A DNA stretch of 64,000 nt from Pseudomonadota bacterium (GTDB taxonomy: Bacteria > Pseudomonadota > Gammaproteobacteria > Burkholderiales > Burkholderiaceae_C), in assembly GCA_029561195.1 (NCBI GenBank), contig JAKQJK010000240.1:2240-66239 (forward strand), written 5' to 3'. Below are positions 31,079-55,972 of this stretch, piece by piece. A model generated the notes under the pieces. It was given only the letters and a program-made list of their open reading frames with translations. It made no database searches and was not told the origin of the DNA. Made by a program: the position numbers and the translations under genes. The stretch's first letter is position 1. Each line of letters starts with the position of its first letter.

Positions 31079-31079
31079 C

Positions 31080-32207: not shown

Positions 32208-32210
32208 AAG

Positions 32211-32243
32211 TAAAAAAGCCACCAGGCAAAAGACTTGGTGGCC
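32211..32243 (-). terminator. rho-independent terminator after phoX
   Basis: gccacca / tggtggc stem. On the minus strand it is followed by a U6 run. Lies 30 nt downstream of the phoX stop. Confidence 0.75.
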
Positions 32244-32272
32244 ATGGCATAAGGCACACGGGCCCCAGTGCA

Positions 32273-34495: not shown

Positions 34496-34537
34496 AACGT
34501 CGTGGTTTTGAGTTGAAAACGGCTAGGATGCAACAGG

Positions 34538-34560
34538 ATCGTGACAGTAGCGTGACACTT
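34538..34560 (-). promoter_or_regulatory. Pho box upstream of phoX
   Basis: The minus strand reads AAG TGTCACG CTAC TGTCACG AT: a perfect direct 7-mer repeat with a 4-nt spacer. Confidence 0.75.
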
Positions 34561-34627
34561 TTTACGGCTAATTCAGGCTAGTGTTGACGACGAAACCAAA
34601 GACAGCTGATACCTAATAGTTCACTAT

Positions 34628-34645
34628 TTTTCACGGAACTGTCAT
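34628..34645 (+). promoter_or_regulatory. Pho box upstream of ppk2
   Basis: TTTTCAC GGAA CTGTCAT, followed 12 nt downstream by a TACTAT -10-like hexamer. Confidence 0.65.
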
Positions 34646-34735
34646 CGAAACTTCTTACTATGGGCGACGCAATAAATCCTTCTGGTTAAAACGTCCCGAC
34701 TCAAAAAGCAGGTTGGGACAGAAACAGGACAACCC

Positions 34736-35647
34736 ATGAGCTCAAGCGAAGAAGAACTGGTCCAGCGCATCCGCCGCGACCTGACAGACAGCTACGATGA
34801 GGAACTTGAACTGGAGCTGGAAGACCGCCACGTTGACGAATTGGGCGGAAGCGAAACTGATTCGGAGTCGTACAAGGAAAGTCGGCGACTGTATTTCCGT
34901 GAGTTGTTCCGGATGCAGGGTGAACTGGTCAAATTGCAGGACTGGGTCGTCAAAACAGGGCACAAGGTGGTCATTCTGTTTGAAGGTCGAGACGCAGCAG
35001 GCAAAGGCGGCGTCATCAAGCGCATTACCCAGCGTCTGAACCCACGTGTGTGCCGTGTGGCCGCCCTGCCAGCACCCAACGACCGCGAGCGTACGCAATG
35101 GTATTTTCAACGCTATGTATCTCACTTGCCTGCGGCGGGCGAGATCGTATTGTTCGATCGCAGCTGGTACAACCGTGCCGGTGTAGAGCGGGTGATGGGG
35201 TTTTGTTCCGACGAGCAATACGAAGAGTTCTTCCGCACCGTACCGGAGTTCGAACGCATGCTGGCCCGCTCAGGCATCCAGTTGATCAAATACTGGTTCT
35301 CCATTTCGGATGAAGAGCAACATTTACGCTTTTTGGGCCGAATTCATGACCCGCTCAAGCAGTGGAAGCTCAGCCCGATGGACCTGGAATCCCGCCGCCG
35401 ATGGGAGGAATACACCAAAGCCAAAGAAGTGATGCTGGAGCGCACACATATTGCCGAAGCTCCCTGGTGGGTGGTGCAGGCGGTTGACAAGAAGAAGGCC
35501 CGGCTCAACTGCATCGACCATTTGCTGGGACAGATTCCCTACAGCGAAATAGAGCATGCGCCCATCGTGCTGCCGCCCCGGGTGCGCCATGAAGACTACG
35601 TGCGGGTACCGGTTCCGCAGGAAATTGTGGTACCCGAAAAGTATTGA
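34736..35647 (+). CDS. ppk2: polyphosphate kinase 2 (single-domain PPK2)
   Basis: 303 aa; Walker A FEGRDAAGKGGVIKRI, DRSWYNR, and the lid region with KQWKLSPMD. Has an acidic N-terminal extension. Confidence 0.9.
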   Translation: MSSSEEELVQRIRRDLTDSYDEELELELEDRHVDELGGSETDSESYKESRRLYFRELFRMQGELVKLQDWVVKTGHKVVILFEGRDAAGKGGVIKRITQRLNPRVCRVAALPAPNDRERTQWYFQRYVSHLPAAGEIVLFDRSWYNRAGVERVMGFCSDEQYEEFFRTVPEFERMLARSGIQLIKYWFSISDEEQHLRFLGRIHDPLKQWKLSPMDLESRRRWEEYTKAKEVMLERTHIAEAPWWVVQAVDKKKARLNCIDHLLGQIPYSEIEHAPIVLPPRVRHEDYVRVPVPQEIVVPEKY

Positions 35648-35688
35648 AATTAGTCCAAATTCATCTTTCTTATCAATGAAGTTGGCAC

Positions 35689-35733
35689 CTAGCCCTTATG
35701 CAATATGTGTGAGTAGCTATTTTTTATATAGCA
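35689..35733 (+). repeat. 45-bp AT-rich dispersed repeat, copy B (intergenic)
   Basis: ctagcccttatgcaatatgtgtgagtagctattttttatatagca. Near-identical core to reverse-complemented copy E (caatat(t)gtgtgagtagctatt). Confidence 0.8.
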
Positions 35734-35830
35734 ATCATCTTTTATCCAATTCTACTGAATCAGGCCAACCATGGCTGCTGTAGCCGAATGCTATGCTGTC
35801 CGCAACGACAACAGAAAACCAAAACAGCAG

Positions 35831-37348
35831 ATGCAAAATGGAACTCGACTGGCCGCGGTGGATTTGGGCTCCAACAGCTTTCGCCTGGAGATTGGGCAAC
35901 TCGATCACGGGCAGTTTTATCGCACGGAATACCTGAAGGAAACGGTTCGCCAGGGGAACGGCCTGGACGAAGATCGCAATCTGACACTCGATGCCATGCA
36001 AAGAGGTTGGGACTGCCTAGCCCGATTTGGAGAGCGTCTGGCGGGTTTCAAGAAAAACCAGGTGCGCGCCGTAGCCACGCAAACGCTTCGTGAGGCACGT
36101 AATCGCGAAGAATTTCTGCTAAAAGCCAATGACATCCTTGGCTTTCCCATTGACGTCATATCTGGCCGCGAAGAAGCCCGCCTCATCTATCTCGGCGTGG
36201 CCAAACTGTTACCCCAGTCGCCCGAACGCAGGCTGGTGGCGGACATTGGGGGGCGCTCCACCGAGCTGATATTGGGCCAGGGGCCCGATGCTCGGGTGAT
36301 GGAGTCATATCGGGTTGGCAGCATTGCATGGTCAACCCGTTATTTTGCTGAAGGAAAGTTCACTCCCCGCGCTTTCCAGATGGCCGAGATTGCCGCCAAG
36401 GCCGTGCTGGATGAAGCCTTGAATGCCTATCGCCGTGACGCCTGGGATGTGGCGTATGGGTCTGCGGGCACTATAGGCGCTGTGGGCGATGTATTGGCCG
36501 CGGCTGGCTGGCCGCAAGGATCCGTCACACAGGCCGGGCTCGACTGGCTACTGGAAAGACTGCTGGAAGCCCAGTATGCGGATCGTCTGCGGCTTGCGGG
36601 CATGAAGGAGGATCGCAGAACGATTATCGGTGGCGGCTTAAGCATCCTGCGCGCTGCCTTTGATTTGCTGGGCATCGACGAAATGAAGGCTGCCAGCGGC
36701 GGGCTGCGGCACGGCGTGCTGTATGACCTGGCGGGTAGCGCAGATAGTGCAAAAGACGTGGCGGATACGCGGTCGAAGTCAGTTCAGCGATTGATCGCTA
36801 AATTCGACACCGATGTAGCGCACGGCAACCGGGTAGGCAAAGTGGCGACGCAGCTTTTTGATCAGTTCCAGGCCAGCTCAACTGACCTAGCAAGCTTGGA
36901 TCACGAGCGCAACCGCCGCAAGCTGATGTGGGCAGCGCAATTGCATGAAATCGGATCGCAGATTTCGCACAGCGACTATCACAAACACGGTGCCTATATT
37001 CTGGATAACGCCGATGCAATGGGCTTTGCTGCCGCCGAGTTGCACAAGCTAAGCCTGTTGGTGTTGGGACAGCGTGGCAAACTTCGCAAGCTGGAAGCAG
37101 ATTTCGAAGACGTCGTTTTTGTGCAGCAGTTGCTCGCACTGCGTCTGGCCATCATCTTGTGCCACGCTCGCCGGGACCCTGATACTTCCGGCCTGCATCT
37201 TGCGTGCAGCCCCGACGACAAGCATGGCTTTGTACTGACCTGCCGCAAGGGCTGGGGGGAGACTTTTCCCCAGTCAGCGCATTTGTTGCGTGAAGAAATA
37301 ATTGCCTGGCAGAAGACTTCTTGGTCTCTGGCCTTGTCTGGAGTTTGA
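35831..37348 (+). CDS. ppx: exopolyphosphatase / Ppx-GppA family phosphatase
   Basis: RLAAVDLGSNSFRLEI and ADIGGRSTEL actin-like ATPase motifs, plus a C-terminal HD-like domain. The ATG at 35831 (MQNGTRLAAVDLG) is preferred over the ORF-track start at 35771. Confidence 0.9.
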   Translation: MQNGTRLAAVDLGSNSFRLEIGQLDHGQFYRTEYLKETVRQGNGLDEDRNLTLDAMQRGWDCLARFGERLAGFKKNQVRAVATQTLREARNREEFLLKANDILGFPIDVISGREEARLIYLGVAKLLPQSPERRLVADIGGRSTELILGQGPDARVMESYRVGSIAWSTRYFAEGKFTPRAFQMAEIAAKAVLDEALNAYRRDAWDVAYGSAGTIGAVGDVLAAAGWPQGSVTQAGLDWLLERLLEAQYADRLRLAGMKEDRRTIIGGGLSILRAAFDLLGIDEMKAASGGLRHGVLYDLAGSADSAKDVADTRSKSVQRLIAKFDTDVAHGNRVGKVATQLFDQFQASSTDLASLDHERNRRKLMWAAQLHEIGSQISHSDYHKHGAYILDNADAMGFAAAELHKLSLLVLGQRGKLRKLEADFEDVVFVQQLLALRLAIILCHARRDPDTSGLHLACSPDDKHGFVLTCRKGWGETFPQSAHLLREEIIAWQKTSWSLALSGV

Positions 37349-37425
37349 TTCCCATCAGCTCCGGTTTTGACGAACGCAAATAAACCGTATAAACTATATA
37401 AATCGTTTATTTACAGGAAGTATTT

Positions 37426-37821
37426 ATGCCTATTGCAAGAAAAAAAGCCGTGGTGACCAAACCAGCAATCGCAGCACCCGCAAAATCTGTCCGTGCCGTC
37501 CGCCCTCCTGTAGCTGCAAAAAAAGCGCTAGGACCCAAAGCAGCGCCAGTCAAACCGGCCGCGAAAGTAAAAATCAAAATTGAAAAACCAGTCAAAGTCA
37601 AGAAACCCAAACTGGTTCGTGACAGCTTCACCATCCCTAAAGATGAATACGCCATGATGGAAACACTGAAGCAACGTGCTGGCCGCTTGAGCAGCCCCGC
37701 CAAAAAGAGCGAGTTGCTACGCGCTGGCATCAAGGCTCTTGCCGCCATGCCAGACGCTACATTTCTGGCCGCACTGAAGGTCGTCCCCTCCATCAAGACA
37801 GGCCGCCCCGCGAAAGACTGA
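37426..37821 (+). CDS. Lys/Ala/Pro-rich (histone H1-like) protein with C-terminal ribbon-helix-helix-like domain
   Basis: 131 aa. The N-terminal 65 residues are KKAVVTKPAIAAPAKS...KPAAKVKIKIEKPVKVKKPK. The C-terminus RDSFTIPKDEYAMMETLKQRAG...KSELLRAGIKALAAM fits a beta-alpha-alpha RHH pattern. Confidence 0.6.
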   Translation: MPIARKKAVVTKPAIAAPAKSVRAVRPPVAAKKALGPKAAPVKPAAKVKIKIEKPVKVKKPKLVRDSFTIPKDEYAMMETLKQRAGRLSSPAKKSELLRAGIKALAAMPDATFLAALKVVPSIKTGRPAKD

Positions 37822-37854
37822 GGCTTCACGAGCGCTGTAGCCGCGTCTTCGTGG

Positions 37855-38316
37855 CTACAGCACCTCAGGGGACTGGACGGTGACCACCACCGTTTGGGAG
37901 CCAGACTCGCGCTCCCGGTTTCTCAACCACCATACCGCTCCCTTTTTGACCGCACATTCAGACTCTGTCAAACCCATGAGTTGCGCAATGGTCTGACCCA
38001 GCGTAGGTTGATGCCCAATCACCAGCACCGTGTTCCGCGCTTTTGGCCATTGGACCAAGTCCAGTAGCTGCACGGCGCTGCAACCCGGTGAAAGTTCTGG
38101 ACAAATCTTGTATTTGCGGCCAAGTGCGACGGCAGTTTGCTCGGTTCTCTTCGATGGACTGATCAAAATACGGGCTGCGTCTGGCAACTGCCGGTCCAGC
38201 CAGGAAGCCATTCTGGCAGCCTGTTTCTCACCACGCGACGTCAAGGGGCGATCCATATCGTTACCGCCCTCTTCCGATTCCAGTGCTTCTGCGTGACGCC
38301 ACAAAATCAGGTTCAT
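37855..38316 (-). CDS. sixA: SixA-type phosphohistidine phosphatase (histidine phosphatase superfamily)
   Basis: 153 aa; MNLILWRHAEA (RHA/RHG catalytic motif) and IGHQPTLG. Its ATG overlaps the ppk1 stop (ATGA). Confidence 0.85.
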   Translation of the reverse strand: MNLILWRHAEALESEEGGNDMDRPLTSRGEKQAARMASWLDRQLPDAARILISPSKRTEQTAVALGRKYKICPELSPGCSAVQLLDLVQWPKARNTVLVIGHQPTLGQTIAQLMGLTESECAVKKGAVWWLRNRERESGSQTVVVTVQSPEVL

Positions 38317-40421
38317 GCGCGTGCTTTTTCGCTGTTGTTACGCCCCGAATACCGGCTCACCAGAGCAGCTTGTGCACCGTGCGCCAAACGCCGGTTTTCA
38401 GGAATCACCCGAACATACTGGCCATCGGGCAGCATGTCCCAAGCATCCACGTCATCATGAAGGTAGGCTACCAGACACTCGTCCACAATACGCTGCCGCT
38501 GTGCCGGGTCCTTAATTGGCCAAGCCAGTTCCACCCGCCGCATCATGTTGCGATTCATCCAGTCGGCGCTGGAGAGGTAGAGATCTTCTGTATCACCGCT
38601 GCGAAAGTAAAAGACGCGTGTGTGCTCCAGAAAGCGGCCAATCACGGATCGCACCCGAATGTTGTCAGTAAAACCCTGTACCTGGGGCGGCAGGATACAG
38701 GCGCCCCGGACAATCAGATCTATCCTGACACCCTTTTGGCCCGCCCGAATAAGCGACTCAATCAATGCTTCATCTGTCAGGGCATTCATTTTTGCGACAA
38801 TCCGGCCAGATTGGCCTCTCGATGCGGCATCCCCGATGAAATCAATCTTCTGGATAAGTTTTCGGTGCAAATGAAAGGGTGCCATCCACACGTCATTCAT
38901 GCGTGCCAATCGGCTTTGGCCTGCCAGATGGACAAAGATATTAGCCATGTCCGCCGTGAGTGACGTGTCCGAGGTGAGGTGGCTTATGTCGGTGTACAGC
39001 CGCGTTGTCTTCAAGTTGTAATTACCCGTTGACAGGTGCCCATAGCGCCGGAGTTGCTTGCCTTCCCTGCGGGTGATCAACATCATCTTGGCATGGGTCT
39101 TCAACCCAACCACACCGTAAACAACCTGTGCACCTATGGATTCCAGCATCTCAGCCCAGTTGATGTTAGCCTCTTCGTCAAAGCGCGCTTTCAGTTCCAC
39201 AACCACCATGACCTCCTTGCCACGGCGTACGGCTTCGCGCAGCAAATCCATCAGGGCTGAATCTGACCCCGCCCGGTAGATGGTCTGTTTGATGGCCAGT
39301 ACCTGCGGGTCGTGCACAGCCTCACGAAGGAATTCCAGAACCCCATCAAAACTCTCAAACGGCTGATGAATGACGATGTCGCCCTGCTTCAATTGCTCGA
39401 ACAGGGAAAGCCCCGGCGCAATCTGCGTGGGGTAGCACGGCTGATGTGGGGAAAAACAAAGCTGCGGCGAATTGACCAGGTCAATCAACTGCGTGAGGCG
39501 AACTAGGTTGACCGGACCATGCACCCGATACAGCGCCTGTTCCGGCAGCTCAAACTGCTGCAGCAGAAATCTGGACAGGTATTCAGAGCAACCTGCAGAC
39601 ACCTCCAGTCGCACTGCCTGGCCATAGTGGCGGTGCTGCAACCCCTGACGCAAGGCCGTCCGGAGATTTTTGACGTCGTCTTCGTCCACCGACAGTTCAG
39701 AGTGCCGGGTCAGGCGGAACTGTGAGAACTGACCCACCTCACGCCCGGGAAACAGTTCGCCCAAATGCGCCCGTATTACGCTGGAGAGGGAGACAAATAG
39801 TCTGTGTCGGCCGGAGATTGCTTCAGGCATGCGAATGAGGCGCGGCAAGACCCGCGGCACCTTCACAATGGCAATGTCGTTGTCGCGCCCAAAAGCGTCC
39901 AGTCCACCCAGGCGTACGATGAAATTGAGTGACTTGTTGGCCACTTGGGGGAACGGGTGAGACGGATCCAGCCCAACCGGTAACAGCAGGGGCCGAACTT
40001 CCTGTTCAAAATACCGCTTCACCCAGCGACGCTGGGCCGCGTTCCGATCCCCGTGCGAAACAATTCTGATGCCCTGCTTTTCAAAAGCGGGCATCAACTC
40101 GTCGTTGTACAAGGCATATTGCCGCGAGACCAGCACATTCGCTGCCGTCGCCAGCGCGGCAAACGATTCCGTCGTATATGCGCCCTGTCGATCCCCCGCC
40201 CGTTGAGCAGCCACATGAGGCTCTGCACGAACCTCAAAAAACTCGTCCAGATTAGAAGAAACGATGCACAGGTATCGCAGACGCTCCATCAGAGGCACCT
40301 CAGCACGGCAAGCCCAGTCAAGCACTCGCTCGTTGAACGCCAGGATGCTGTGATCCCTGTCCAGCAAAGGCGTCACGGGTGCCTGGCCTGTCGGCTCACG
40401 TACAGATACAGAAGTGAACAT
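38313..40421 (-). CDS. ppk: polyphosphate kinase 1
   Basis: 702 aa; SILAFNERVLDWA N-terminus and two PLD-like HKD-type regions (VGLKTHAKMMLI and GRFLEHTRVFYF). Confidence 0.95.
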   Translation of the reverse strand: MFTSVSVREPTGQAPVTPLLDRDHSILAFNERVLDWACRAEVPLMERLRYLCIVSSNLDEFFEVRAEPHVAAQRAGDRQGAYTTESFAALATAANVLVSRQYALYNDELMPAFEKQGIRIVSHGDRNAAQRRWVKRYFEQEVRPLLLPVGLDPSHPFPQVANKSLNFIVRLGGLDAFGRDNDIAIVKVPRVLPRLIRMPEAISGRHRLFVSLSSVIRAHLGELFPGREVGQFSQFRLTRHSELSVDEDDVKNLRTALRQGLQHRHYGQAVRLEVSAGCSEYLSRFLLQQFELPEQALYRVHGPVNLVRLTQLIDLVNSPQLCFSPHQPCYPTQIAPGLSLFEQLKQGDIVIHQPFESFDGVLEFLREAVHDPQVLAIKQTIYRAGSDSALMDLLREAVRRGKEVMVVVELKARFDEEANINWAEMLESIGAQVVYGVVGLKTHAKMMLITRREGKQLRRYGHLSTGNYNLKTTRLYTDISHLTSDTSLTADMANIFVHLAGQSRLARMNDVWMAPFHLHRKLIQKIDFIGDAASRGQSGRIVAKMNALTDEALIESLIRAGQKGVRIDLIVRGACILPPQVQGFTDNIRVRSVIGRFLEHTRVFYFRSGDTEDLYLSSADWMNRNMMRRVELAWPIKDPAQRQRIVDECLVAYLHDDVDAWDMLPDGQYVRVIPENRRLAHGAQAALVSRYSGRNNSEKARA

Positions 40422-45729: not shown

Positions 45730-45781
45730 GTCACTTTTTGTACCTAAAAATGCCTGAACTTCAGCGTCTTGCAAAAAAGAT

Positions 45782-45811
45782 TCCATATTTCAATTATCAT
45801 TGAAATATGGA
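45782..45811 (+). promoter_or_regulatory. perfect 13-bp inverted repeat (putative ArsR operator) overlapping the arsR start codon
   Basis: TCCATATTTCAAT tatc ATTGAAATATGGA. The arsR ATG (45807-45809) lies inside the right arm. Confidence 0.6.
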
Positions 45812-46163
45812 ATCAAAAATCGCCACTCAGCTATTGGATGAACCTGCCGCTGTCAAAGCCCTGTCAGCGCTGGCACAAGCCCAGCGCCTGCGGGCATTTC
45901 GCGCACTTGTAACCGCCGGGCCCGACGGATTGACGCCTGGCGCCATGGCCGAGCAGCTGTGCGTGGCACCCAGCGCCTTGTCCTTTCACCTGAAGGAGCT
46001 GGCCCATTCGGGCCTCGTGCACATGGAGCCCCGTGGTCGCAACCTGATTTACCGCGCCAACTTCCCACACATGAGCGCACTGCTGGGTTACCTGACCGAG
46101 CACTGCTGCCAGGGTGCTGATTGCGCCGTTACGGGGGTGGCCGATTGCATGAGCTGCGACTGA
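45807..46163 (+). CDS. arsR: ArsR/SmtB-family metalloregulator with C-terminal cysteine cluster
   Basis: 118 aa; winged HTH (LCVAPSALSFHLKELAHSGLV). The C-terminal HCCQGADC...DCMSC resembles the C-terminal As(III) site of Acidithiobacillus-type ArsR. Confidence 0.88.
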   Translation: MESKIATQLLDEPAAVKALSALAQAQRLRAFRALVTAGPDGLTPGAMAEQLCVAPSALSFHLKELAHSGLVHMEPRGRNLIYRANFPHMSALLGYLTEHCCQGADCAVTGVADCMSCD

Positions 46164-46176
46164 GGCACCGCACAGA

Positions 46177-47523
46177 ATGAACATCGCCGACGCCCTCAAC
46201 CACGGCTGCATGTGCCGCACGCTGGACAGCGACCGCCTGCGCGCGCAACTGGAAAAAGACCCCAGCCTCACCGGCCTGGCCAACAGCATGGCCCTCGCAC
46301 AACCGCACCTGTTTTCCAGAAGTGTGGTGTTTCTCTCCACCGCCACGTATCAGGCCATTGCGGACACCGTATCCGCGATAGAGCGCGTGATGGCCCTACC
46401 CGCTTATCAGGCATGGGCGCTGGCGAACGCACCCGCCATTGCCCGACCCGCCTTCGGTCCGCTGGGTGCTTTCATGGGCTACGACTTTCATGTGGACCCC
46501 GGCAACACGGATTTCAAAAGTCCGCAACTCATTGAAATCAACACCAATGCCGGTGGCGCCCTGCTCAACGCCGCACTGGCCCGGGCGCACCAGGCTTGCT
46601 GCGAGCCCATGTTGCTGGCGCTGGACACCTATACCCGGCTTGATTCGCTGGAGCAGCGTTTCTTTGACATGTTCATGAGCGAATGGCGTCTGCAACGGGG
46701 CGATGACCAGACGCTGAGCACTATCGTCATCGTGGACGACGCTCCGCAGGCTCAGTATCTGGCGCCCGAATTTGCACTTTTCCGGCAGATGTTCGAACAA
46801 CGTGGTCTGACAGCTCTCATTGCCGACCCGCAGGCCCTGCAATGGCGTGACGGCAGCTTGTGGCTCGCCCAGACCCGTGTGGACATGGTCTACAACCGCC
46901 TCACCGACTTCGACCTGTCAGAGCCCGCGCATCAGGCCCTGCACGAAGCCTATATGGCGGGTGCAGCGGTCGTCACGCCGCACCCCTATGCCCACGCCCT
47001 GCGCGCCAACAAGCGTAACCTGATTGCGCTTTCCAGCGATGACTTGCTGAATTTATGGGGCGTGTCACCCGCTGACCGGAAACGCTTGGGCGATGCAATC
47101 CCACACACGCAGGCAGTCACCCGCGATCACGCCGACGCCTTGTGGGCACAGCGGCGCCAACTGTTCTTCAAGCCGGTGGCCGGCTATGCAGGCAAAGCGG
47201 CCTACAAGGGTGAAAAATTAACCCGCCGCGTGTGGGATGACATTGTTGCGGGTGACTTCATTGCCCAGACCCTTGTGCCCCCCGGACAACGACTGGTGAA
47301 CGTGGATGGCGTAGCCACGCAGCTAAAGTTCGACGTGCGGGCCTACACCTACGCCGGGCAGATTCAGCTGCTGGTAGCCCGAACCTACAGCGGCCAGACC
47401 ACTAATTTCCGAACACCGGGCGGCGGGTTTTCGCCCGTGCTGGTAGTGCCGCAAATTGACCTCTCCGCCGAAGAGGCCTCAGCCCGATGGCCCACACCCG
47501 AAAACCCCTGCACCAACTGTTAA
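46177..47523 (+). CDS. uncharacterised circularly permuted ATP-grasp-like protein with three cysteine pairs
   Basis: 448 aa. The Mg/ATP-grasp C-motif-like LIEINTNAGG (res 118-127) precedes the lysine-loop-like FFKPVAGYAGKAAY (res 330-343), which is the reverse of the classical order. YDFHVD...LIEIN resembles the GspS-like RxDF...LLEYN motif. Its only cysteines are C11xC13, C141C142 and C445xxC448. Confidence 0.5.
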   Translation: MNIADALNHGCMCRTLDSDRLRAQLEKDPSLTGLANSMALAQPHLFSRSVVFLSTATYQAIADTVSAIERVMALPAYQAWALANAPAIARPAFGPLGAFMGYDFHVDPGNTDFKSPQLIEINTNAGGALLNAALARAHQACCEPMLLALDTYTRLDSLEQRFFDMFMSEWRLQRGDDQTLSTIVIVDDAPQAQYLAPEFALFRQMFEQRGLTALIADPQALQWRDGSLWLAQTRVDMVYNRLTDFDLSEPAHQALHEAYMAGAAVVTPHPYAHALRANKRNLIALSSDDLLNLWGVSPADRKRLGDAIPHTQAVTRDHADALWAQRRQLFFKPVAGYAGKAAYKGEKLTRRVWDDIVAGDFIAQTLVPPGQRLVNVDGVATQLKFDVRAYTYAGQIQLLVARTYSGQTTNFRTPGGGFSPVLVVPQIDLSAEEASARWPTPENPCTNC

Positions 47524-47547: not shown

Positions 47548-48048
47548 ATGACAAACCAATCCATCAATGTGCTCTTCCTGTGCACGCACAACTCAGCCCG
47601 CAGCATCCTGGCCGAGGCTGTGCTGAACCACATTGGCCATGGCCGCTTCAAGGCTTATTCAGCGGGCAGCAGCCCGCGCGAGAATCAGCAACCCAACCCG
47701 CTGGGCATCAAGACCTTGCAGACAGCAGGCATTTCCACCGAAGGGTTAAAAAGCAAAAGTTGGGACGAATTTGCCAAGCCCGATGCACCGCACATGGACC
47801 TAGTCATCACCGTGTGCGATAACGCCGCTGGCGAGGTTTGCCCCTATTGGCCTGGCCAGCCGGCCACCGCGCACTGGGGTTATGCCGACCCATCTGCCAT
47901 CGACGGCACCGACGAGCAGCGCCTGGAGGCTTTCCGCCAGACCCTGCACGCCATCCGCCGCCGTCTGGAATTGCTGGTGAACCTGCCTGCGCAAAGCGTG
48001 GACAAGCTCATGCTGCAAACCCGCGCGCGTGATCTCGCCAAATCATGA
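47548..48048 (+). CDS. arsC: arsenate reductase, thioredoxin-coupled LMW-PTP type
   Basis: 166 aa; P-loop LCTHNSARS (CX5R) and the VCDNAAGEVCP cysteine pair. Confidence 0.9.
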   Translation: MTNQSINVLFLCTHNSARSILAEAVLNHIGHGRFKAYSAGSSPRENQQPNPLGIKTLQTAGISTEGLKSKSWDEFAKPDAPHMDLVITVCDNAAGEVCPYWPGQPATAHWGYADPSAIDGTDEQRLEAFRQTLHAIRRRLELLVNLPAQSVDKLMLQTRARDLAKS

Positions 48049-48764
48049 GTGCAAACGCTCCACAATCCCATGTTCCGTCCCTGCCACAGCAACTGCTAGC
48101 CGAATTTGCAGGCACCGCCACGCTGCTCTGCGCCGTCATTGGCTCCGGCATCATGGCCGAACGCCTGAGCGGCGGCAACAACGGCGTGGCGCTGGTGGCC
48201 AACACATTGGCCACGGTGTTTGCGCTGTATGTGCTGATCGAAACGCTAGGGCCCATCAGCGGTGCGCACTTCAACCCGCTGGTCACTCTGGTTATGTGGT
48301 CAAAAGGTAATCCAGCCTTCGTCAAATCTGCGCGAGTAGCTATATTATTTATAGCATTTCAATTGCTGGGCGCGGTGACAGGCGCGTGGACCGCCCACCT
48401 GATGTTTGACCTGCCCATCCTCCAGTTCAGCGTCCACTGGCGTGGCGGCTTCGATGCAGCTGGCACGTTCACTGGTTGGGGCCAATGGGTCGCCGAAGCA
48501 GTGGCCACAGGTGGACTGATTTTCGTCATCCTGAAGTCACCACCGGGAAAAGTCAGCGCGCTGGTAGCCTGCTACATCGGTGCGGCCTACTGGTTCACGG
48601 CCAGCACGTCGTTTGCCAACCCGGCGGCGGTGATGGGCCGCATGATGAGCGACAGCTTTGCGGGCATTGCACCAGCCAGCGCGCTGGGGTTTGTGCTGGC
48701 GCAATGTGTGGGCGCTGTTGTCGGCACCACCGTAGCGGGCTGGTTGCAGCCAACGGAAAAATAA
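48045..48764 (+). CDS. MIP-family channel (AqpS/GlpF-like aquaglyceroporin, putative As(III) channel)
   Basis: 239 aa; first NPA box is HFNPLVT, second box is FANPAAV; 6 TM pattern. ATGA overlap with the preceding arsC. Confidence 0.85.
   Translation: MSANAPQSHVPSLPQQLLAEFAGTATLLCAVIGSGIMAERLSGGNNGVALVANTLATVFALYVLIETLGPISGAHFNPLVTLVMWSKGNPAFVKSARVAILFIAFQLLGAVTGAWTAHLMFDLPILQFSVHWRGGFDAAGTFTGWGQWVAEAVATGGLIFVILKSPPGKVSALVACYIGAAYWFTASTSFANPAAVMGRMMSDSFAGIAPASALGFVLAQCVGAVVGTTVAGWLQPTEK
48312..48356 (+). repeat. 45-bp dispersed repeat, copy D, embedded in-frame in the MIP channel gene
   Basis: ccagccttcgtcaaatctgcgcgagtagctatattatttatagca. 33/45 identical to reverse-complemented copy E and 34/45 to copy A. 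Translated as PAFVKSARVAILFIA. Confidence 0.7.
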
Positions 48765-48784: not shown

Positions 48785-49216
48785 ATGACCGATATCACGA
48801 TCTATCACAACCCTGACTGCGGCACCTCCCGCAATGTGCTCGCACTCATTCGCAACAGCGGTGTCGAGCCCACCATCATCGAGTACCTCAAAACACCACC
48901 CGACCGTGCCAGGATGGTAGCGCTGATTGCACAAATGAACATCCCGGTACGCGATGTGTTGCGGCAAAAGGGCACGCCCTACGACGAATTGCAACTGGGC
49001 AACCCGAGCCTGAATGACAACGACTTGATTGACGCGATGCTTGCCCATCCCATCCTGATGAACCGCCCCATCGTGGTCACGGAACTGGGTGCCCGCCTGT
49101 GCCGCCCGTCTGAGGCCGTGCTGGACATCCTGCCCTCTCCCCAGCAAGGCGCTTTCAGCAAGGAGGACGGCGAGCAGGTCGTTAACGCGCAAGGAGCACG
49201 TGTTGCGAGCCATTGA
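48785..49216 (+). CDS. arsC: arsenate reductase, glutaredoxin-coupled (ArsC/Spx fold)
   Basis: [22 protein letters not shown] (catalytic Cys motif as in R773 ArsC). ATG at 48785; the longer ORF-track frame from 48476 overlaps the channel gene. Confidence 0.9.
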
Positions 49217-49928
49217 CGTGATCCAACTCCCCAACGTCAGTGAGGCGCTCTTCTCGGCACCCTCTCAAGCCCAGTTAAGGCCGGTAACTCCTGCAGCCCA
49301 CCCTCCCCGCATCCTGCTGCTATACGGTTCATTGCGCGAGCGCTCGTTCAGCCGCCTGCTGAGCGAGGAAGCCGCCTGCCTGCTACACGCTATGGGTGCG
49401 GATACGCGCACCTTCAATCCCCACGGCTTGCCGTTGGCCGACGACGCACCCGACTCGCACCCGAAGGTGCAAGAGTTGCGCGAGCTGGCCGCGTGGAGCG
49501 AAGGCATGGTCTGGACTTCACCCGAGCGGCACGGAGCCATGACCGGCATCATGAAAACGCAGATCGACTGGATTCCGCTCTCGCAAGGCGCGGTGCGCCC
49601 CACGCAGGGCAAAACGCTGGCGGTGATGCAGGTCAGCGGTGGCTCGCAGTCGTTCAATGCGGTGAATCAGTTGCGCGTGCTGGGCCGCTGGATGCGCATG
49701 CTCACCATCCCCAACCAGTCTTCGGTTGCCAAGGCCTTCATGGAGTTTGATGACGCGGGGCGAATGAAGCCTTCCGCCTATTACGACCGTGTTGTGGACG
49801 TGATGGAAGAGCTGGTGAAGTTCACGCTGCTCACGCGCGACGTGTCACCCTACCTGGTGAACCGCTACAGCGAGCGCAAAGAGAGTGCGGAAGAGTTGAT
49901 GAAACGGGTGAATCAGAAATCGATTTAA
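49200..49928 (+). CDS. arsH: arsenical resistance protein ArsH (NADPH-dependent FMN reductase)
   Basis: [19 protein letters not shown] and [20 protein letters not shown]. Probable GTG (49200) or TTG (49203) start after AAGGAG (49191-49196). The ORF-track start at 49089 overlaps arsC. Confidence 0.88.
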
Positions 49929-50114: not shown

Positions 50115-53100
50115 ATGAGCACCGAACCCGTCTGTGCCGACGACTTGACCGACAACTTTGCTGCACTTCGTGCCGTTGAACACGAGGCGATTCAGGCACG
50201 TCGCAAAGCGGTCCTCGGCACTGATGCCAGCGACAATCCGACAGAGCTCAACCTGCCTCAGGTTGGACTTGCTTTGTCGGGTGGCGGTGTTCGCAGCGCC
50301 ACATTTGCGCTGGGGTTGATGCGCGGTATGGCCCAAAACCGCGAGGGGTCCAGCGCCGATCCCGCGAAACGAACGCTGGCCAGTGACGGGCTGTTGGGTC
50401 GTCTGGACTACCTGTCCACCGTATCCGGTGGCGGCTACACCGGCGGCATGTACGGGCGTCTGGTGGCAACCTATGGCCTGCATTGCGCGCAACGCTTGAT
50501 GGCGCGGGGTGATTCGCCCGTGCTGGAATGGCTACGCCGCAATGGCCGCTACTTGACGCCCGCCGGTTCGCGCGACGTCGGCATCGCGGTAGTGACCTAT
50601 TTGCGTGCCTGGCTGGCCATCCACGCCGAATTCATGTTTGCCTGCATCTTGCTGGGTCTGGTGGTGGTGGCACCCCATCTGTGGCAACACAGCTTTCAGA
50701 TGCTGGACCCACGGGGGTGGGAGCTCTGGCGCACGCCTTGGTGGGCCCTGTCGCTGGCGCTGTGGGCAACCCTGGCGCCCGGTTTGATTGCAGGGTATTG
50801 GGCAGCCCGCGATGCACCCAACCCGGCAGCCACGCGCCTGATGCCGGGCTGGCGTGATGCCCTGTTCGTTCTGGCAGCAGCCGGGGGCGCGTACCTGTTG
50901 TTGCGAGCTCTGCAGACCAGTGGCGCCATCAATCCGGTTCGCCACAGCCTGAACTGGCCGGGTGCCGGTGTGTTGACGGTGATCTCGCTAGTAGCGGGCC
51001 AGTTGTGCGTGATGGTGTGGATGGCCGTCAAAGCGGGGCCGCACGGTCTGAAAGTGGCACTGTTGCGCAACTGGCTCACGCGGGCGTTGCGTTGGGTGAT
51101 GCTGGGCACGTTGGCCCTGGCCGGACTGGGCGCGCTGGACCGGCTGAGCTGGTGGGTACTGGAGGAATTTCAGACCGGTAACCAATGGCTGTGGGGTGGT
51201 GTCGGTGTCGGTGGCGTTGCAGTGTTGACCCTTCGCACACTGATGCAGCCACTGCAGCAAATGGCGGCCAAATCCGAGAGCAGTGCGCGAGACTGGTTGC
51301 CCCGGCTGCTCAATTTCGGCAGCCTGCTCGGCGTTTTGGCGCTGGTTACGGCCTGGCTGGTGGTTTTGCAATGGTTTGTGTTCGCGCCGGAGACATTCCG
51401 AACTCTGCGAAGCGTACCCGCCTGGATGCGGGCCAGCATGCTGACGAGCGTGTGGCTCACATGGGTGGTGCTCACTGCGGGCAATTCGCAAATGGCCAAC
51501 ACATCTTCCCTGCATAGTTTTTATCGCGCACGGCTGACCCGTGCCTACCTGGCTGTGGGCAACCGCCAGCGAACCATGGACAACGACGCGGGCACCCGGG
51601 CCGATGTAACCCGCGTGGTGGAAGGCGACGACACACGCCTAGCCAGCTACCGGCCCGAGCTGAATGGCGGACCGATCCACCTTGTCAACACCTGCCTGAA
51701 CCAGACGCGGGACGATAAAAGCGGCCTCTACAACGCTGACCGCAAAGGTACAGCCGTCACGGCAACCTGGCGTGGTTTCGAAATTGGCCAACGCGAGTTT
51801 GTCGCGCTCAAGCCCGAGCACGATGCCGGCACGCTCGGGCGATGGGTTGCGGTGTCGGGTGCCGCAGCGTCGCCGGGCGCAGGTGCGTACACATCGCGAG
51901 GTCTGGCGTTACTGGTGTACTTTCTTGGGGTGCGACTCGGCCACTGGATGCGCGCTCCCCGTGAGCGGGTGGCTTTGCAATGGCTGAGCCATCTGGCTTG
52001 GCGGGCCATTCCCAAGCCCATGATGCTGGCCAGCGAAGCATCAGCCACCTTTTTTGGTGTAGAACGGCCGTGGTGGTACATGTCTGACGGGGGGCACTTT
52101 GAAAACAGCGGCGTGTATCCGCTGCTCAAACGCGAGCTTGGCTTCATCATCCTGTCAGACGCCGGTTGCGATGCCCGTTATGAGTTTGGCGACATGGAAA
52201 ACCTGGTGCGCAAGGCCCGTATCGATTTCGGTGCCGAGATCGATTTCTACAGCCGTGACGAAGCTGCCAGCCTGTTCACGCTGGGCAGCAAGGAATTGAC
52301 AGTGTTGTCACCTGAAGACATGACCAACAACCATTCGTCCCGCGGCGTGTTGCTGGCCCGCATCCGCTACCGTGAGCGCCCCGGGCCGCGCAGGGCAGAT
52401 GGCAGTGAAGGCCCGCCCGTGCGCCCGGAAGGCACACTGCTGGTGATCAAACCCAACCTGCACGACGCGCTCGATGTGGACTTGCTGGCTTACGCGCAAA
52501 AACACGAGAGTTTTCCGCACGAATCCACAGGTGACCAGTCTTTCGACGAGGCACAGTGGGAAAGCTACCACCGGCTTGGCGAAGATTTTGGCCGCTCACT
52601 GCACGCCAGCTGGATGGCCCAACTGCCGGGTTGGCGCACCCCTGCCCGCCACGGCATCCGGGTTGCGGCACGGTTGGGTGCGAACAAGGGCGCCGCGGAC
52701 GCACCCCGGGTCGAACCCCTGTGGCGGCGCAACGCGCGTGCTACCGCCATTGGTACTACGCTGGGTGTTGGTGCTTCGGGAACCTTGCTGTTGTCACTGT
52801 GGCAGGTTCAAGACCAGCTTCAACGCAACCGCACCGATGAACAATACGAAGCACGGCAGCTGTTCACCGAAGTATCTAAGGGCCTTCAGTCCTTCAAGGG
52901 CTCCTGCCCGGACATACCGGAGCATGTCGTCACACAGGCCTCCCTGCTGCTGGATTTGCGTGGCAGCCCCACCATGCGGCCGCTGGAGCAGGCCGGACTG
53001 GAGCGCCTAGCAGGACGCATTGCCGATGAATGCACCCGTGAGGTCGAAGCCAGTCACGAATGCGTTGCCGCCCATCAACGCATACAAGGCAGCCTGTGTG

Positions 53101-53822
53101 CCTTGGTGCTGAAACCACCAACCCAAAATACTGCGCTGAACTACTGGCACCCGGGCGCTTCGCCTGACGAGCAGGCGCGCGACGGCCGCACTGTGCTGCG
53201 AACGGTTCAGTCTGCCGTGGGTCGGTTCCCTGTGTTCGGAACGCTGTTCATGGAAGGTTCGCAGACTATCGGATTAGCCGACCAACAACCTGTGGATAGC
53301 AGCAATACACAGTCGCAGCGGGCCGCTGCGCCACCTCTGACGCCGATGCCCCCAGAGATAGCAGCGGCAGCGTTTTTGCCATCACTGAATGCCTGCTGGC
53401 GCGGGAACGGCCGCACCACGCTATATATCCATATATACGATGAACCGTCCCAAGTGCTGGCAAAAGCGCTTCGTCAGGCCTTATCAGCAGGAGCCGACTC
53501 ATCCGTGCTGGTGGCACCTATCGAGAACGTGATTCGCAGCGCTGATCTTCGCCAGCAGCGCCGACCGGTACCGTGGCCCAAACCCACCCTGGTGTTGCAC
53601 GACCCCTTGAGCCGCGACTGCGCACGGTCGATATCGCGATTCATTGGCGGGCCGTGGGTGCTCCCGGGAGACGCGGACACCGTGTGGCTGCGGGATCTGC
53701 CCCGCACGCTCCTGGCTCGCCCCGGTGTGATTGAGTTGTGGTTACCACCCATTGAAATAACCACATCGGAAAACAACGCGGACCATACTGAAATCGTGGG
53801 CGCGTTGACCCGGGAGCGGTGA
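50115..53822 (+). CDS. giant patatin-like phospholipase with ~8-TM insertion and uncharacterised C-terminal region
   Basis: 1235 aa; oxyanion-hole motif GGGVRS (res 56-61), nucleophile-elbow-like TVSGGG (Ser104), and catalytic DGG in MSDGGHFENSGVYP (Asp658). About 8 hydrophobic helices lie between Ser104 and Asp658. FPHESTGDQSFDEAQWESYHRLGE is followed by one more TM helix and about 400 residues with no recognisable motif. Confidence 0.75.
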   Translation: MSTEPVCADDLTDNFAALRAVEHEAIQARRKAVLGTDASDNPTELNLPQVGLALSGGGVRSATFALGLMRGMAQNREGSSADPAKRTLASDGLLGRLDYLSTVSGGGYTGGMYGRLVATYGLHCAQRLMARGDSPVLEWLRRNGRYLTPAGSRDVGIAVVTYLRAWLAIHAEFMFACILLGLVVVAPHLWQHSFQMLDPRGWELWRTPWWALSLALWATLAPGLIAGYWAARDAPNPAATRLMPGWRDALFVLAAAGGAYLLLRALQTSGAINPVRHSLNWPGAGVLTVISLVAGQLCVMVWMAVKAGPHGLKVALLRNWLTRALRWVMLGTLALAGLGALDRLSWWVLEEFQTGNQWLWGGVGVGGVAVLTLRTLMQPLQQMAAKSESSARDWLPRLLNFGSLLGVLALVTAWLVVLQWFVFAPETFRTLRSVPAWMRASMLTSVWLTWVVLTAGNSQMANTSSLHSFYRARLTRAYLAVGNRQRTMDNDAGTRADVTRVVEGDDTRLASYRPELNGGPIHLVNTCLNQTRDDKSGLYNADRKGTAVTATWRGFEIGQREFVALKPEHDAGTLGRWVAVSGAAASPGAGAYTSRGLALLVYFLGVRLGHWMRAPRERVALQWLSHLAWRAIPKPMMLASEASATFFGVERPWWYMSDGGHFENSGVYPLLKRELGFIILSDAGCDARYEFGDMENLVRKARIDFGAEIDFYSRDEAASLFTLGSKELTVLSPEDMTNNHSSRGVLLARIRYRERPGPRRADGSEGPPVRPEGTLLVIKPNLHDALDVDLLAYAQKHESFPHESTGDQSFDEAQWESYHRLGEDFGRSLHASWMAQLPGWRTPARHGIRVAARLGANKGAADAPRVEPLWRRNARATAIGTTLGVGASGTLLLSLWQVQDQLQRNRTDEQYEARQLFTEVSKGLQSFKGSCPDIPEHVVTQASLLLDLRGSPTMRPLEQAGLERLAGRIADECTREVEASHECVAAHQRIQGSLCALVLKPPTQNTALNYWHPGASPDEQARDGRTVLRTVQSAVGRFPVFGTLFMEGSQTIGLADQQPVDSSNTQSQRAAAPPLTPMPPEIAAAAFLPSLNACWRGNGRTTLYIHIYDEPSQVLAKALRQALSAGADSSVLVAPIENVIRSADLRQQRRPVPWPKPTLVLHDPLSRDCARSISRFIGGPWVLPGDADTVWLRDLPRTLLARPGVIELWLPPIEITTSENNADHTEIVGALTRER

Positions 53823-54358: not shown

Positions 54359-55972
54359 TCAGTCGCCCAGAGGGTTGAGCAAATCAGCCCGCCCTTCGAA
54401 TGCAAAGAGCAGCAAGTCCGTCATGTTGAACCGATTACCAGGATTGTTGACCAGTGCCGTTGGCCTGAATGAAGCATCGCGAACAATGGAATGTGCGCTA
54501 CCTTCCATTGCCCGGTGAAAGGTCTCTGCCACGATACGGCCACCCACACCCGTCAGCTTGCCACCATTGAGTTCGGCTTCACGCAGAATGTAGTACCACA
54601 GAGGCGTTTGCGTACCGACGCTCTTGAGGGCAGCCGGCAAGCCCTGGGTCAGTTTGGCAGCTGTCACTGGTGCAACACCCATCATCGCCGCCATTTGCTG
54701 GCCGCTGGCCAACTCAACCATATTGGCTCGGATCAGATTGCGAAAAGCCAAGTTCAGCTCTTCGGGTGGTGTGCTGCTGGGCCCTCCGAAAGAACCCAGA
54801 GGCAGCGCCTTGAGCGGGTCAACCAGCTGTGTGTCAGTCATCATGGCGAGATTGGGCGCTCCTTCGGGTGGCGTCAGGTCTGCACGCCCCACTTCGGTGA
54901 AGTTGTACAGACGGCGGAAGTCAACGGTCCAGTTGGAGGGCAGTTGCTCAAAACTACCCGACTCCCGGTCGTTGGGTGTGCTGGGTGGCGGCGACAAGGT
55001 GCCGCTGGTGCCCGAAAACTGAAACAGCAAACCGAGGCTAGCCGGAGCGGCTCCGCCCGTACGGAATACGCGGTTCCAGTTGTACTGTTCGCGAATCATG
55101 CTGTGACCCAGACGATATGCAGCCACGGAAAACTCGATGGGCATGGTAGGCATGTTTTCCGGTGTTGCATCTTTTTCGAAAAACTTTCGTCCATTGGTGA
55201 AGACATCGTCGATGATTGCCTGATCAATCAGGCGTGGCAGAAAGTCTGTCCTGATCATCCACTGGTAGTGCTTGACTACGAGTTCGCGTGCCTTCTCAAA
55301 CAGGTCGGCGCTGGGAGTGGCAGGTGCGATCTTGTCCACCACGCGGTTGTGAAACCGGATCATGGCAAGATGCGTTTGTGCAACGATCAGGTTTTCGTCG
55401 TTGCGATGATCGGGAATGAGGGCGGCACGCCGCTCCACCTTGAGAGAACCCTGCCCCACACGCGGCAAGTCGTAGCCATCACGCGGCCCCAGCGTGACAC
55501 CCGCATTGAGCAGATCGGGTGACGGAGCAGTTGTGCCCATTTTGATGCGAATCCCGTCACTGTAAAACTTGCTGTCGTCTGCATCTGCAGGCCCCCGGCC
55601 GTACATGCAGTCCAAGTCCAGGGCGGGTGAGCGGCCCTGCAGCAGTTCTTCAATGGTGACGTTACTTCCCAACGCCTTGGCAGTGCGGTCCATTGTGAGG
55701 TCATGGTCTATGAACTGGCCCAGGTAAGTGAAACCAGCGGGGATAGCCGGTCCGGAAGAATCAGGCCCCGGTGAATCGGTCATGGCCTTGGCGAGGCCAC
55801 TGACGATGGTCTTGTCAACCGCCGTACCTTTGGGGCCCATGCGGGAGAACCGAAATTTCCGTATTTGCGGGACATCCCCAGGAGTGGGATCCGTGGTGGG
55901 CTGACCCTTCGAGTCGCAGTAAAGCAAACCCTCGCCTACGACGTAATAGTTGTAACGTACATGACGCTTCAT
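54359..55972 (-). CDS. animal-haem-peroxidase family protein (peroxidase-cyclooxygenase superfamily)
   Basis: 537 aa; distal site YLGQFIDHDLT, DHRNDENLIVAQTHLAMIRFHNR, proximal His AAYRLGHSMI. No signal peptide is visible. Confidence 0.8.
   Translation of the reverse strand: MKRHVRYNYYVVGEGLLYCDSKGQPTTDPTPGDVPQIRKFRFSRMGPKGTAVDKTIVSGLAKAMTDSPGPDSSGPAIPAGFTYLGQFIDHDLTMDRTAKALGSNVTIEELLQGRSPALDLDCMYGRGPADADDSKFYSDGIRIKMGTTAPSPDLLNAGVTLGPRDGYDLPRVGQGSLKVERRAALIPDHRNDENLIVAQTHLAMIRFHNRVVDKIAPATPSADLFEKARELVVKHYQWMIRTDFLPRLIDQAIIDDVFTNGRKFFEKDATPENMPTMPIEFSVAAYRLGHSMIREQYNWNRVFRTGGAAPASLGLLFQFSGTSGTLSPPPSTPNDRESGSFEQLPSNWTVDFRRLYNFTEVGRADLTPPEGAPNLAMMTDTQLVDPLKALPLGSFGGPSSTPPEELNLAFRNLIRANMVELASGQQMAAMMGVAPVTAAKLTQGLPAALKSVGTQTPLWYYILREAELNGGKLTGVGGRIVAETFHRAMEGSAHSIVRDASFRPTALVNNPGNRFNMTDLLLFAFEGRADLLNPLGD

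Follow-up and report, generated by a model that had tools for sequence, protein, structure and literature searches.

What does an arsenic resistance operon use a gene for that fits none of the known arsenic functions? This question is raised by a 448-amino-acid protein, here called X, which is encoded between arsR and arsC in a stretch of 64,000 nucleotides from contig JAKQJK010000240.1 of a Pseudomonadota bacterium of the Burkholderiaceae_C (hereafter the window, meaning the whole stretch of DNA that was analyzed). An earlier reading made from the letters alone (the sequence-only reading) had singled out this gene, found no ars function to which it could be assigned, and suggested that it encodes a circularly permuted, amide-bond-forming ATP-grasp enzyme, with the handling of or response to arsenite as one hypothesis for its role. 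In this report, we demonstrate that X represents a separate family, as yet unnamed, within a known enzyme class; the family is marked by cysteine motifs of its own and is repeatedly linked to metal(loid) resistance. We propose, at a rough probability of 55%, that X is an ArsR-controlled small-molecule amide ligase that has been recruited to soft-metal(loid) resistance loci.

In this genome, X is a genuine gene that belongs to an operon headed by arsR. A chance open reading frame (ORF) would not have its large family of homologues: at least 8000 were found at E≤1e-3 in a 90%-clustered collection (the closest at 1.6e-284), and clustering at 50% identity gave 3018 representatives at the same threshold, 1014 of them at E≤1e-30. 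The family is spread over Alpha-, Beta- and Gammaproteobacteria with thousands of members, often on plasmids. The exact sequence of X is deposited as HOZ62858.1 from a Burkholderiaceae metagenome-assembled genome, and the sole name given to X and its relatives in any source is "hypothetical protein"; in the literature, we found no paper on this family or on ATP-grasp genes in ars or other metal clusters. Membership in the operon follows from the gaps, the terminator scan and the palindrome at the arsR start: X lies on the same strand as its neighbors, 13 nt after the arsR stop and 24 nt before the first arsC, terminator-like sites between arsR, X and arsC occurred at chance level only, and the gene is preceded by a regulator with a candidate operator. 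The position and length given in the sequence-only reading thus stand, but its spacings of 14 and 25 nt do not. In related ars-type loci, the median arsR-X gap is 16 nt. The inverted repeat (Table 1) overlaps the arsR start codon and is probably the ArsR operator, and of 35 ars-type loci, 14 have a related palindrome with the core TTCAA-N6-TTGAA where arsR begins. Judging from this arrangement, X would be co-transcribed with arsR, arsC, the MIP channel gene, the second arsC and arsH, and co-transcription with arsR would mean that X is switched on by arsenite through ArsR.

The class of X was determined by structure prediction. Two AlphaFold2 models were built, one from an alignment of 30 close homologues with a moderate predicted local distance difference test score (pLDDT) of 77, and the other from 85 diverse members with a pLDDT of 94.5, a predicted template modeling (TM) score of 0.93 and values of 90-97 over the N-terminal 50 residues. 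Foldseek gave the same ranking for both: eukaryotic-type glutathione synthetase and homoglutathione synthetase (GS/hGS) first, then Cp1B and 3n6x, and then GspS, YgiC/YjfC and trypanothione synthetase. The GS/hGS matches (yeast 1m0w, soybean 3kal, human 2hgs and plant) ranged from E 7e-16 to 1e-13 with TM scores of 0.56-0.62, the yeast enzyme being found at 6.6e-16 and the soybean enzyme at TM 0.61-0.62. Permuted ATP-grasps filled ranks 1-49 with 440-500 columns aligned to X, and the first classical, non-permuted ATP-grasp, E. coli GshB (1gsa), appeared at rank 50 with 289 columns and a TMq of 0.32. The full-length matches to permuted enzymes, with GshB only at rank 50, therefore support the permuted topology. 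Thus, X is, as modeled, a circularly permuted ATP-grasp ligase fold, and the fold suggested in the sequence-only reading is borne out by both models in their matches to GS, Cp1B, GspS and YgiC/YjfC.

Profile searches were less direct. None of the Pfam and NCBIfam models matched X at E≤1, and these include the known ars families (ArsA/B/C/D/H/I/J/M/N/O/P and Acr3), while the operon neighbors were identified correctly in the same searches; the statement that X fits no known ars function therefore holds. Searches of the PDB with X (phmmer and hmmsearch) returned non-significant matches only and no GS, the single sequence match being 3n6x at E 1.9. Among the 85 diverse members, 16 matched CP_ATPgrasp_2 (PF14403) with a best E of 2.7e-7; the gathering score of this model is 32 bits, and the two members whose bit scores are shown (26.2 and 16.0) are both below it. 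An ATP-grasp profile match, below threshold, is therefore seen in relatives only and not in X of the window. None of the 85 matched the GSP_synth or eukaryotic GS Pfam models (E≤0.01), four families in all being listed among their matches, and seven longer members contained no added Pfam domain. Two plasmid homologues, on pPNAP02 (L098 4998-6608) and on a Stutzerimonas plasmid (L099 4965-6626), share a C-terminal extension of about 110 amino acids with the motif ...RF(I/R)L(V/A)DWY... and no Pfam match.

Conservation was assessed in the same 85 members, which are 37-62% identical to X of the window. Residues D103, I119, E120, N124, G126, R241, F245, P268, P270, K279, R326, K332, P333, G345, Q364, D386, R388, R402, G406, N410 and G417 are invariant (85/85). 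The motifs on which the permuted order had been recognized are present as described, at Y102-D-F-H-V-D107, L118-I-E-I-N-T-N-A-G-G127, F330-F-K-P-V-A-G-Y-A-G-K-A-A-Y343 and N410-F-R-T-P-G-G-G417, and the distance of about 210 residues between the E-x-N motif and the K-P loop is 212 when counted from E120 to K332. A local dip of the pLDDT to 81 in the 330-343 loop fits a mobile loop, and this segment may correspond to the glutathione synthetase loop. In profile alignments (hhalign), YD103F...E120-x-N122 of X falls on M-D318-F...E330-Y-N332 of GspS and also on the equivalent motif of YgiC, in the D-F/E-x-N region only and at low probability (0.3% for GspS alone; 10%, E 0.003, for a GspS/YgiC/YjfC profile), which makes this a consistency check and not a proof. 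In these alignments, Gly101 of X (G101-Y-D103-F) occupies the position of the arginine of the GspS/YgiC/YjfC R-x-D motif, an arginine that presumably has an equivalent in glutathione synthetase. The proposed likeness to GspS and YgiC thus extends to the D-F...E-x-N motif but not to orthology with GspS. X is a separate family and an ortholog of neither GspS nor GS, because it has Gly101 for Arg and no GSP_synth or GS Pfam match. The invariance of D103, E120, N124, R241, K279, R326, K332, D386, R388, R402 and N410 in 85 members argues for an active enzyme and not a pseudoenzyme, and the fold together with these residues identifies X as a probable ATP-dependent carboxylate-amine ligase. By analogy with the enzyme class, D103, E120 and N122 together with K279 and K332 would hold Mg-ATP, and a substrate carboxylate would be phosphorylated, the resulting acyl-phosphate being the target of attack by an amine.

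The genomic context of the relatives indicates where such a ligase is used. In a close set of 80 loci (one genome per species, 58-92% identity, mainly Comamonadaceae), an ArsR ortholog is encoded directly upstream of X in 38, and elsewhere in these loci LMWP-ArsC (30), Grx-ArsC (18), ACR3 (18), MIP (16) and ArsH (15) are found. A CDF transporter gene occupies position -1 or -2 relative to X in 20 close loci, often with an ArsP_1-type permease, Thioredoxin_3 and OsmC upstream. Pairing with a regulator persists at greater distance: at 47% identity, a chromosomal member and an arsR-arsC-arsC-MIP operon are transcribed in opposite directions away from each other, and at 41% identity, an ArsR-type helix-turn-helix gene overlaps the X homologue. 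In addition, 31 plasmids from Alpha-, Beta- and Gammaproteobacteria carry X homologues with 42-60% identity, and 10 of the 11 plasmid copies examined lie in copper, mercury, CDF or RND clusters. These include copper islands with neighbors such as a P-type ATPase and CopABCD (Halomonas HAL1, Moraxella osloensis, Sinorhizobium M14 pSinB, Caulobacter henricii, Janthinobacterium, pPNAP02 and Stutzerimonas), the mer operon of Pseudomonas K-62 pMR68, a CDF-X pair between IS6100 copies in Sphingobium, and an RND/YeeE cluster in Sulfuricella; near the eleventh copy, in Hoeflea, only a DUF305 protein and a phospholipase D are encoded. A phospholipase-D-family gene adjoins X in Sulfuricella (L089 4263-5906), Hoeflea (L095 2178-3725) and two metagenome contigs (L111 and L112). 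Linkage of the orthologs to ars genes is thus frequent, but it is accompanied by copies in CDF, copper, mercury, RND and housekeeping contexts. That X moves as a single gene, with no constant partner, among arsenic, zinc/cadmium (CDF), copper and mercury clusters, whose toxicants differ chemically but are all thiophilic, suggests that its substrates are probably common metabolites and that the benefit of its product probably extends to thiophilic metal(loid)s in general. The most likely product would be a low-molecular-weight peptide or thiol conjugate, thiol-containing or chelating, or else a compound that spares the thiol pool.

X contains exactly six cysteines, which form the three pairs noticed earlier (C11/C13, C141/C142 and C445/C448), but their conservation differs. 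The N-terminal CxC is retained in about 92-94% of the family and C141-C142 in about 77%, whereas the position of C445/C448 is not conserved across the 85 members, so that the C-terminal CxxC is not a family feature. Among 136 representatives that include the N-terminal region, 65 have both motifs, 36 CxC only, 8 CC only and 27 neither. Approximately 20% of the representatives thus lack both, and the cysteines are therefore not needed for catalysis; being dispensable for the fold, they are more likely to serve in regulation or metal binding than in the reaction itself. The two motifs tend to co-occur (odds ratio 6.1, p 3e-5, uncorrected for phylogeny), and their joint retention or loss is as expected for a single joint site. 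CxC and vicinal CC are classic ligand sets for As(III) and soft metals, as in R773 ArsR (Cys32-x-Cys34), ArsD (Cys12-Cys13) and the C-terminal CC of MerA. Judging from these motifs, C11-x-C13 and C141-C142 would probably come together in a single site that binds soft metal(loid)s and serves to regulate or stabilize X. In the C-terminal tail, at least two cysteines are present in 16 of 40 ars-linked loci and 2 of 38 others (p 3e-4, uncorrected for phylogeny), with a spacing that varies by lineage (CxxC, CxC, Cx3C and Cx8-9C), and L007, which is among the two exceptions, proved by tblastn to be an ars locus cut short. The C-terminal pair thus looks like an add-on tied to ars linkage, and in ars-linked copies the tail probably provides a further arm for binding As(III).

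A different view of the conserved cysteines, compatible with the proposed ligase, is that they hold Zn or an Fe-S cluster in a structural role, or act as a redox switch, and are not a sensor for toxic metals. The predicted close packing of the N-terminal segment (pLDDT 90-97) is in agreement with this, the joint retention or loss of the two motifs is equally expected for one cluster site, and both motifs persist in copies next to DinG and molybdenum cofactor (Moco) genes, outside resistance loci. The classic soft-metal character of CxC and vicinal CC and the preference of the additional Cys-pair tails for ars-linked copies speak for a toxic-metal ligand set instead, and we regard a purely structural or redox site as a serious but rather unlikely alternative. 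The copies beside DinG and Moco genes also bear on a simple rule that the housekeeping contexts of four out of four Cys-less members (UbiB/riboflavin, thiolase and Moco genes) and the motifs of the 11 plasmid copies examined (all with the CC pair, 10 also with CxC) had suggested, namely that Cys-less members are housekeeping and Cys-bearing members belong to metal islands; this rule was rejected, since these copies keep both motifs, which shows that the motifs also occur outside resistance islands.

Several points weigh against a ligase recruited for metal(loid) resistance. X itself lacks a profile match in Pfam and NCBIfam, its sequence identity to the solved structural relatives is only 10-16%, and it has a glycine in place of the R-x-D arginine; the co-occurrence statistic ignores kinship, one-fifth of the representatives dispense with both cysteine motifs, and the plasmid sample is biased towards resistance islands. 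A less biased sample was taken from metagenomes, consisting of 80 loci around a central family member, of which 60 were informative (at least two called neighbors). An arsenic, copper, zinc or mercury gene was found within three genes of X in 24 of the 60, eight contained DinG-like helicase-X-MobB-MoeA-MoaE operons, and 28 had an "other" context, an upper bound given the limited gene panel, so that about half are without a recognized metal gene. An overlapping DinG-X-MobB-MoeA-MoaD/E subgroup (L105 3987-9735, L142, L152, L161, L163, L167 and L175) mostly keeps both Cys motifs. A random gene is expected near such a metal gene in only a few percent of cases, and the enrichment around X would look strong when set against this general expectation. 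Both the family and its cysteines thus extend beyond metal resistance.

These contexts form the basis of a housekeeping explanation, in which X serves general metabolism and its presence in resistance clusters results from hitch-hiking or from Comamonadaceae synteny. The metagenome loci without a recognized metal gene, the DinG-X-MobB-MoeA operons and the Cys-less members beside UbiB/riboflavin, thiolase and Moco genes are what it would predict, and the close loci are mostly from one family, whose synteny is not independent. It does not account for the recurrence of the linkage in three proteobacterial classes and in different arrangements (arsR-X, divergent arsR|X, CDF-X, P-type ATPase-X, mer-X and cop-X), for the frequent translational closeness of X to a metal regulator or transporter, as in the short arsR-X gaps and the Sphingobium CDF-X pair within IS6100, or for the enrichment of Cys-pair tails in ars-linked copies. 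We therefore consider mere hitch-hiking quite unlikely and retain the soft-metal(loid) ligase as the better account.

Given the fold, X might also be a functional analogue of glutathione or homoglutathione synthetase that, controlled by ArsR, joins Gly or beta-Ala to gamma-Glu-Cys and so raises glutathione for the Grx-type ArsC and for As(GS)3 formation. X shares the permuted three-domain ATP-grasp fold of eukaryotic GS/hGS (2hgs, 1m0w and 3kal) over its whole length and has an invariant E-x-N in the N-terminal quarter, with K-P and glycine-rich loops later, and its best structural matches are GS/hGS in closed, substrate-bound forms. The same operon encodes a glutathione- and Grx-dependent ArsC, and extra glutathione would help against copper, mercury and cadmium, in keeping with the wider contexts. 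In contrast, X is a bacterial protein from metal(loid) operons with only 11-14% identity to GS and no match to the eukaryotic GS Pfam model, it has a glycine where GspS/YgiC have the arginine of R-x-D, and its four conserved cysteines (N-x-x-C-x-C and CC) have no counterpart in GS. Betaproteobacteria normally have a canonical gshB, beside which such an analogue would be redundant. A glutathione synthetase activity of X is therefore improbable.

Peptide or protein modification has been proposed for some circularly permuted ATP-grasp families, and CP_ATPgrasp_2 members are predicted peptide modifiers. By this precedent, X could act on a protein or ribosomal peptide, for example on a metal-handling protein whose carboxylate it would join to an amino acid or an amine. 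CP_ATPgrasp_2 is indeed the nearest sequence family, YgiC/YjfC are described as joining spermidine to peptides, and small ORFs flank X in some loci (a degenerate Trx3-like ORF, and a 92-aa ORF in pSinB); however, no partner or precursor gene is conserved across contexts, the flanks in the window are arsR and arsC only, and the solved relatives of known function act on small molecules or short peptides, so that we hold this modification to be very doubtful. Two small unannotated ORFs without an NCBIfam match lie near X in CDF-type loci (L082 5677-5991 and 7676-7981): one of 104 aa that ends in CC...CC, and one of 97-101 aa, directly upstream of X, that is Thioredoxin_3-like without CxxC. Finally, a function specific to arsenic, as the sequence-only reading had favored, was rejected as too narrow, because copies occur in CDF, copper, mercury, RND and housekeeping contexts.

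Table 1. Features of the ars operon and of X in the window, with their positions and the evidence for each
Feature	Position	Strand	Evidence or remark
Candidate ArsR operator	45779..45814	.	Perfect 16-nt inverted repeat with 4-nt spacer (GATTCCATATTTCAAT-TATC-ATTGAAATATGGAATC); arms 100% complementary
arsR, ArsR/SmtB-family repressor	45807..46163	+	HTH_20 2.6e-9; NF033788 8e-15
X, 448-aa predicted circularly permuted ATP-grasp ligase, unnamed family	46177..47523	+	ATG start; homologues, fold model
N8-x-x-C11-x-C13 motif of X	46198..46215	+	N8 81/85, C11 80/85, C13 78/85; pLDDT 90-97
Predicted Mg2+/acyl-phosphate site of X, Y102-D103-F-H...L118-I-E120-I-N122-T-N124-A-G-G127	46480..46557	+	N122 84/85; permuted ATP-grasp D...E-x-N
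Vicinal C141-C142 of X	46597..46602	+	C141 64/85, C142 67/85
Predicted ATP-binding lysine and flexible loop of X, F330-F-K332-P333-x-x-G336-...-Y343	47164..47205	+	G336 81/85
Conserved glycine-rich loop of X, G406-Q-T-T-N410-F-R-T-x-G-G-G417	47392..47427	+	Q407, T409, R412 and G416 in at least 82/85
Variable flexible C-terminal tail of X, ending P-C445-T-N-C448	47452..47520	+	pLDDT 60-73
arsC, LMWP/thioredoxin-type arsenate reductase	47548..48048	+	LMWPc 2.3e-17; TIGR02691 below cutoff
MIP-family channel, aquaglyceroporin-like	48045..48764	+	PF00230 2.4e-17
arsC, glutaredoxin-type arsenate reductase	48785..49216	+	TIGR00014 147 bits, cutoff 106; ATG at 48785
arsH	49200..49928	+	TIGR02690 407 bits, cutoff 292

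Other genes of the window provide the setting of X. The start of the MIP channel gene overlaps the arsC stop, and the start of arsH is uncertain, GTG at 49200 or at 49218 being candidates (the mechanical ORF begins at 49089). The MIP channel is the sole transporter-like gene called in this ars operon, which encodes neither ArsB nor ACR3; in related loci, ACR3 often takes the place of the channel. This arrangement recalls, as we assume, AqpS of Sinorhizobium meliloti. The product of arsR has a Cys-rich C-terminus, HCCQGADCAVTGVADCMSCD (HCCQGADC...DCMSC), which presumably resembles the As(III) site of Acidithiobacillus-type ArsR and not the helix-3 CVC site of R773 ArsR. Directly downstream of the operon, positions 50115-53822 contain a 1235-aa ORF with no Pfam match at E≤1e-5, an N-terminal GGGxRS patatin-like motif by eye and no equivalent in the other loci compared, and the minus strand at 54359-55972 encodes a 537-aa protein with an animal haem peroxidase domain (PF03098, 3.5e-19), a domain believed to be uncommon in bacteria. 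A phosphate cluster lies a few kb from the ars operon (27585-40421), with phoU-pstBACS-like genes at 27585-32123 and a ppx-like gene at 35771-37348, both by position and sequence, and a polyphosphate kinase gene (ppk) at 38313-40421 by Pfam; the order ppk, metallophosphoesterase, acyltransferase and arsR-X is kept in several Comamonadaceae loci. Farther upstream, positions 13381-13477 match the bacterial small signal recognition particle RNA (RF00169, 60 bits), just after a 127-aa ORF at 12968-13351 that derives from crude gene calling.

Few resistance systems have been studied as much as the ars, cop, czc and mer clusters, yet the family of X is unnamed and not modeled in Pfam or NCBIfam. If the reading of its fold and context is correct, X would add an ATP-driven biosynthetic step to a defense known mostly as efflux, reduction and methylation, and it could lead to a new metabolite with a protective effect and to a ligase that carries a soft-metal site of its own. 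For annotation, tens of thousands of "hypothetical proteins" could become permuted ATP-grasp ligases. Members of the family are present in culturable hosts, including Hydrogenophaga pseudoflava, Polaromonas sp. A23, Polaromonas naphthalenivorans CJ2, Caulobacter henricii and Moraxella osloensis.

Among known systems, GspS (2io7) and YgiC/YjfC (7uk8 and 7uk6) have a permuted fold like that of X (Foldseek E 4e-13 to 5e-10, TM 0.5-0.58) and an aligned D-F...E-x-N, and they are thiol- or peptide-linked amide ligases. Unlike these enzymes, X is without an amidase domain, has G-Y-D-F for R-x-D-F/L and differs in its Cys motifs and genomic context. By sequence, the closest family is CP_ATPgrasp_2 (PF14403), below threshold, and the Methylobacillus flagellatus structural-genomics proteins 3n6x and 3k1t are also related, 3n6x with a fold match of 1.4e-13. 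Typical CP_ATPgrasp neighbors are alpha-E and transglutaminase; these did not turn up in the neighborhoods of X examined, in which no search was aimed at these domains. Cp1B (9cjn), a fungal ligase for the pseudodipeptide E-64, matches the fold of X at E 4.7e-14 and TM 0.56, and it was itself a "hypothetical protein" with no detectable identity to characterized ATP-grasps, its structural neighbors being hGS and YgiC/YjfC (PMC12568646). Cp1B differs from X in that it belongs to a fungal natural-product cluster, ligates epoxysuccinate to an amino acid and has no metal link. The characterized structural relatives all ligate small molecules or short peptides (PMC12568646): gamma-Glu-Cys is joined to Gly or beta-Ala, spermidine to glutathione or to peptides, and epoxysuccinate to an amino acid. 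YgiC/YjfC, according to the citation of Pederick et al. 2023 in that paper, ligate spermidine to peptides.

A second comparison is offered by the genes next to X. An asparagine-synthase-like gene of the AsnO type lies about 18 nt downstream of X, on the same strand, in 15 Rhodoferax-type loci (for example L013 9266-11065); it matches the N-acetylglutaminylglutamine amidotransferase model TIGR03104 with 982 bits at a cutoff of 570, and the same pairing occurs on Polaromonas naphthalenivorans pPNAP02 (L098 6624-8456; X 47% identical) and in metagenome locus L171. The Ngg/AsnO pathway, which makes N-acetylglutaminylglutamine amide, likewise pairs an ATP-grasp ligase with AsnO, and this pairing is mirrored by X-AsnO in about 17 loci. 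X and Ngg are not homologous at the level tested, X is without a GNAT domain, and the pairing is limited to part of the family. No Ngg-like gene was noticed among the called neighbors of the X-AsnO loci, in which no search was aimed at Ngg, and X may replace the ATP-grasp enzyme with which AsnO is usually paired. The recurrent AsnO neighbor fits a peptide-like product with a free carboxylate, and in some lineages the adjacent amidotransferase may amidate the product of X further. AsnO as an obligatory partner of X was rejected, because there is none in the window.

A third comparison concerns the thiols themselves. The products of phytochelatin synthase and trypanothione synthetase, which are thiol peptides or conjugates, sequester arsenic, antimony, cadmium or copper, and both enzymes are functional analogies for X. 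Phytochelatin synthase is activated by thiophilic metals, and this is the model suggested for the cysteine site of X. Trypanothione synthetase (2vpm) matches the fold of X at 7e-9, whereas phytochelatin synthase is a papain-like transpeptidase and not an ATP-grasp. By extension, X might make a new low-molecular-weight thiol peptide or conjugate, amidated by AsnO in some lineages, and be activated by As(III), Cu(I), Cd(II) or Hg(II) at its own four-cysteine site; we offer this as a speculation that is unlikely to hold in all its parts. If it did, X would be a mobile, single-gene, metal-sensing chelator synthase and a new class of accessory gene in ars, cop, czc and mer clusters, and its product would be a bacterial counterpart of phytochelatin or trypanothione made by an ATP-grasp enzyme.

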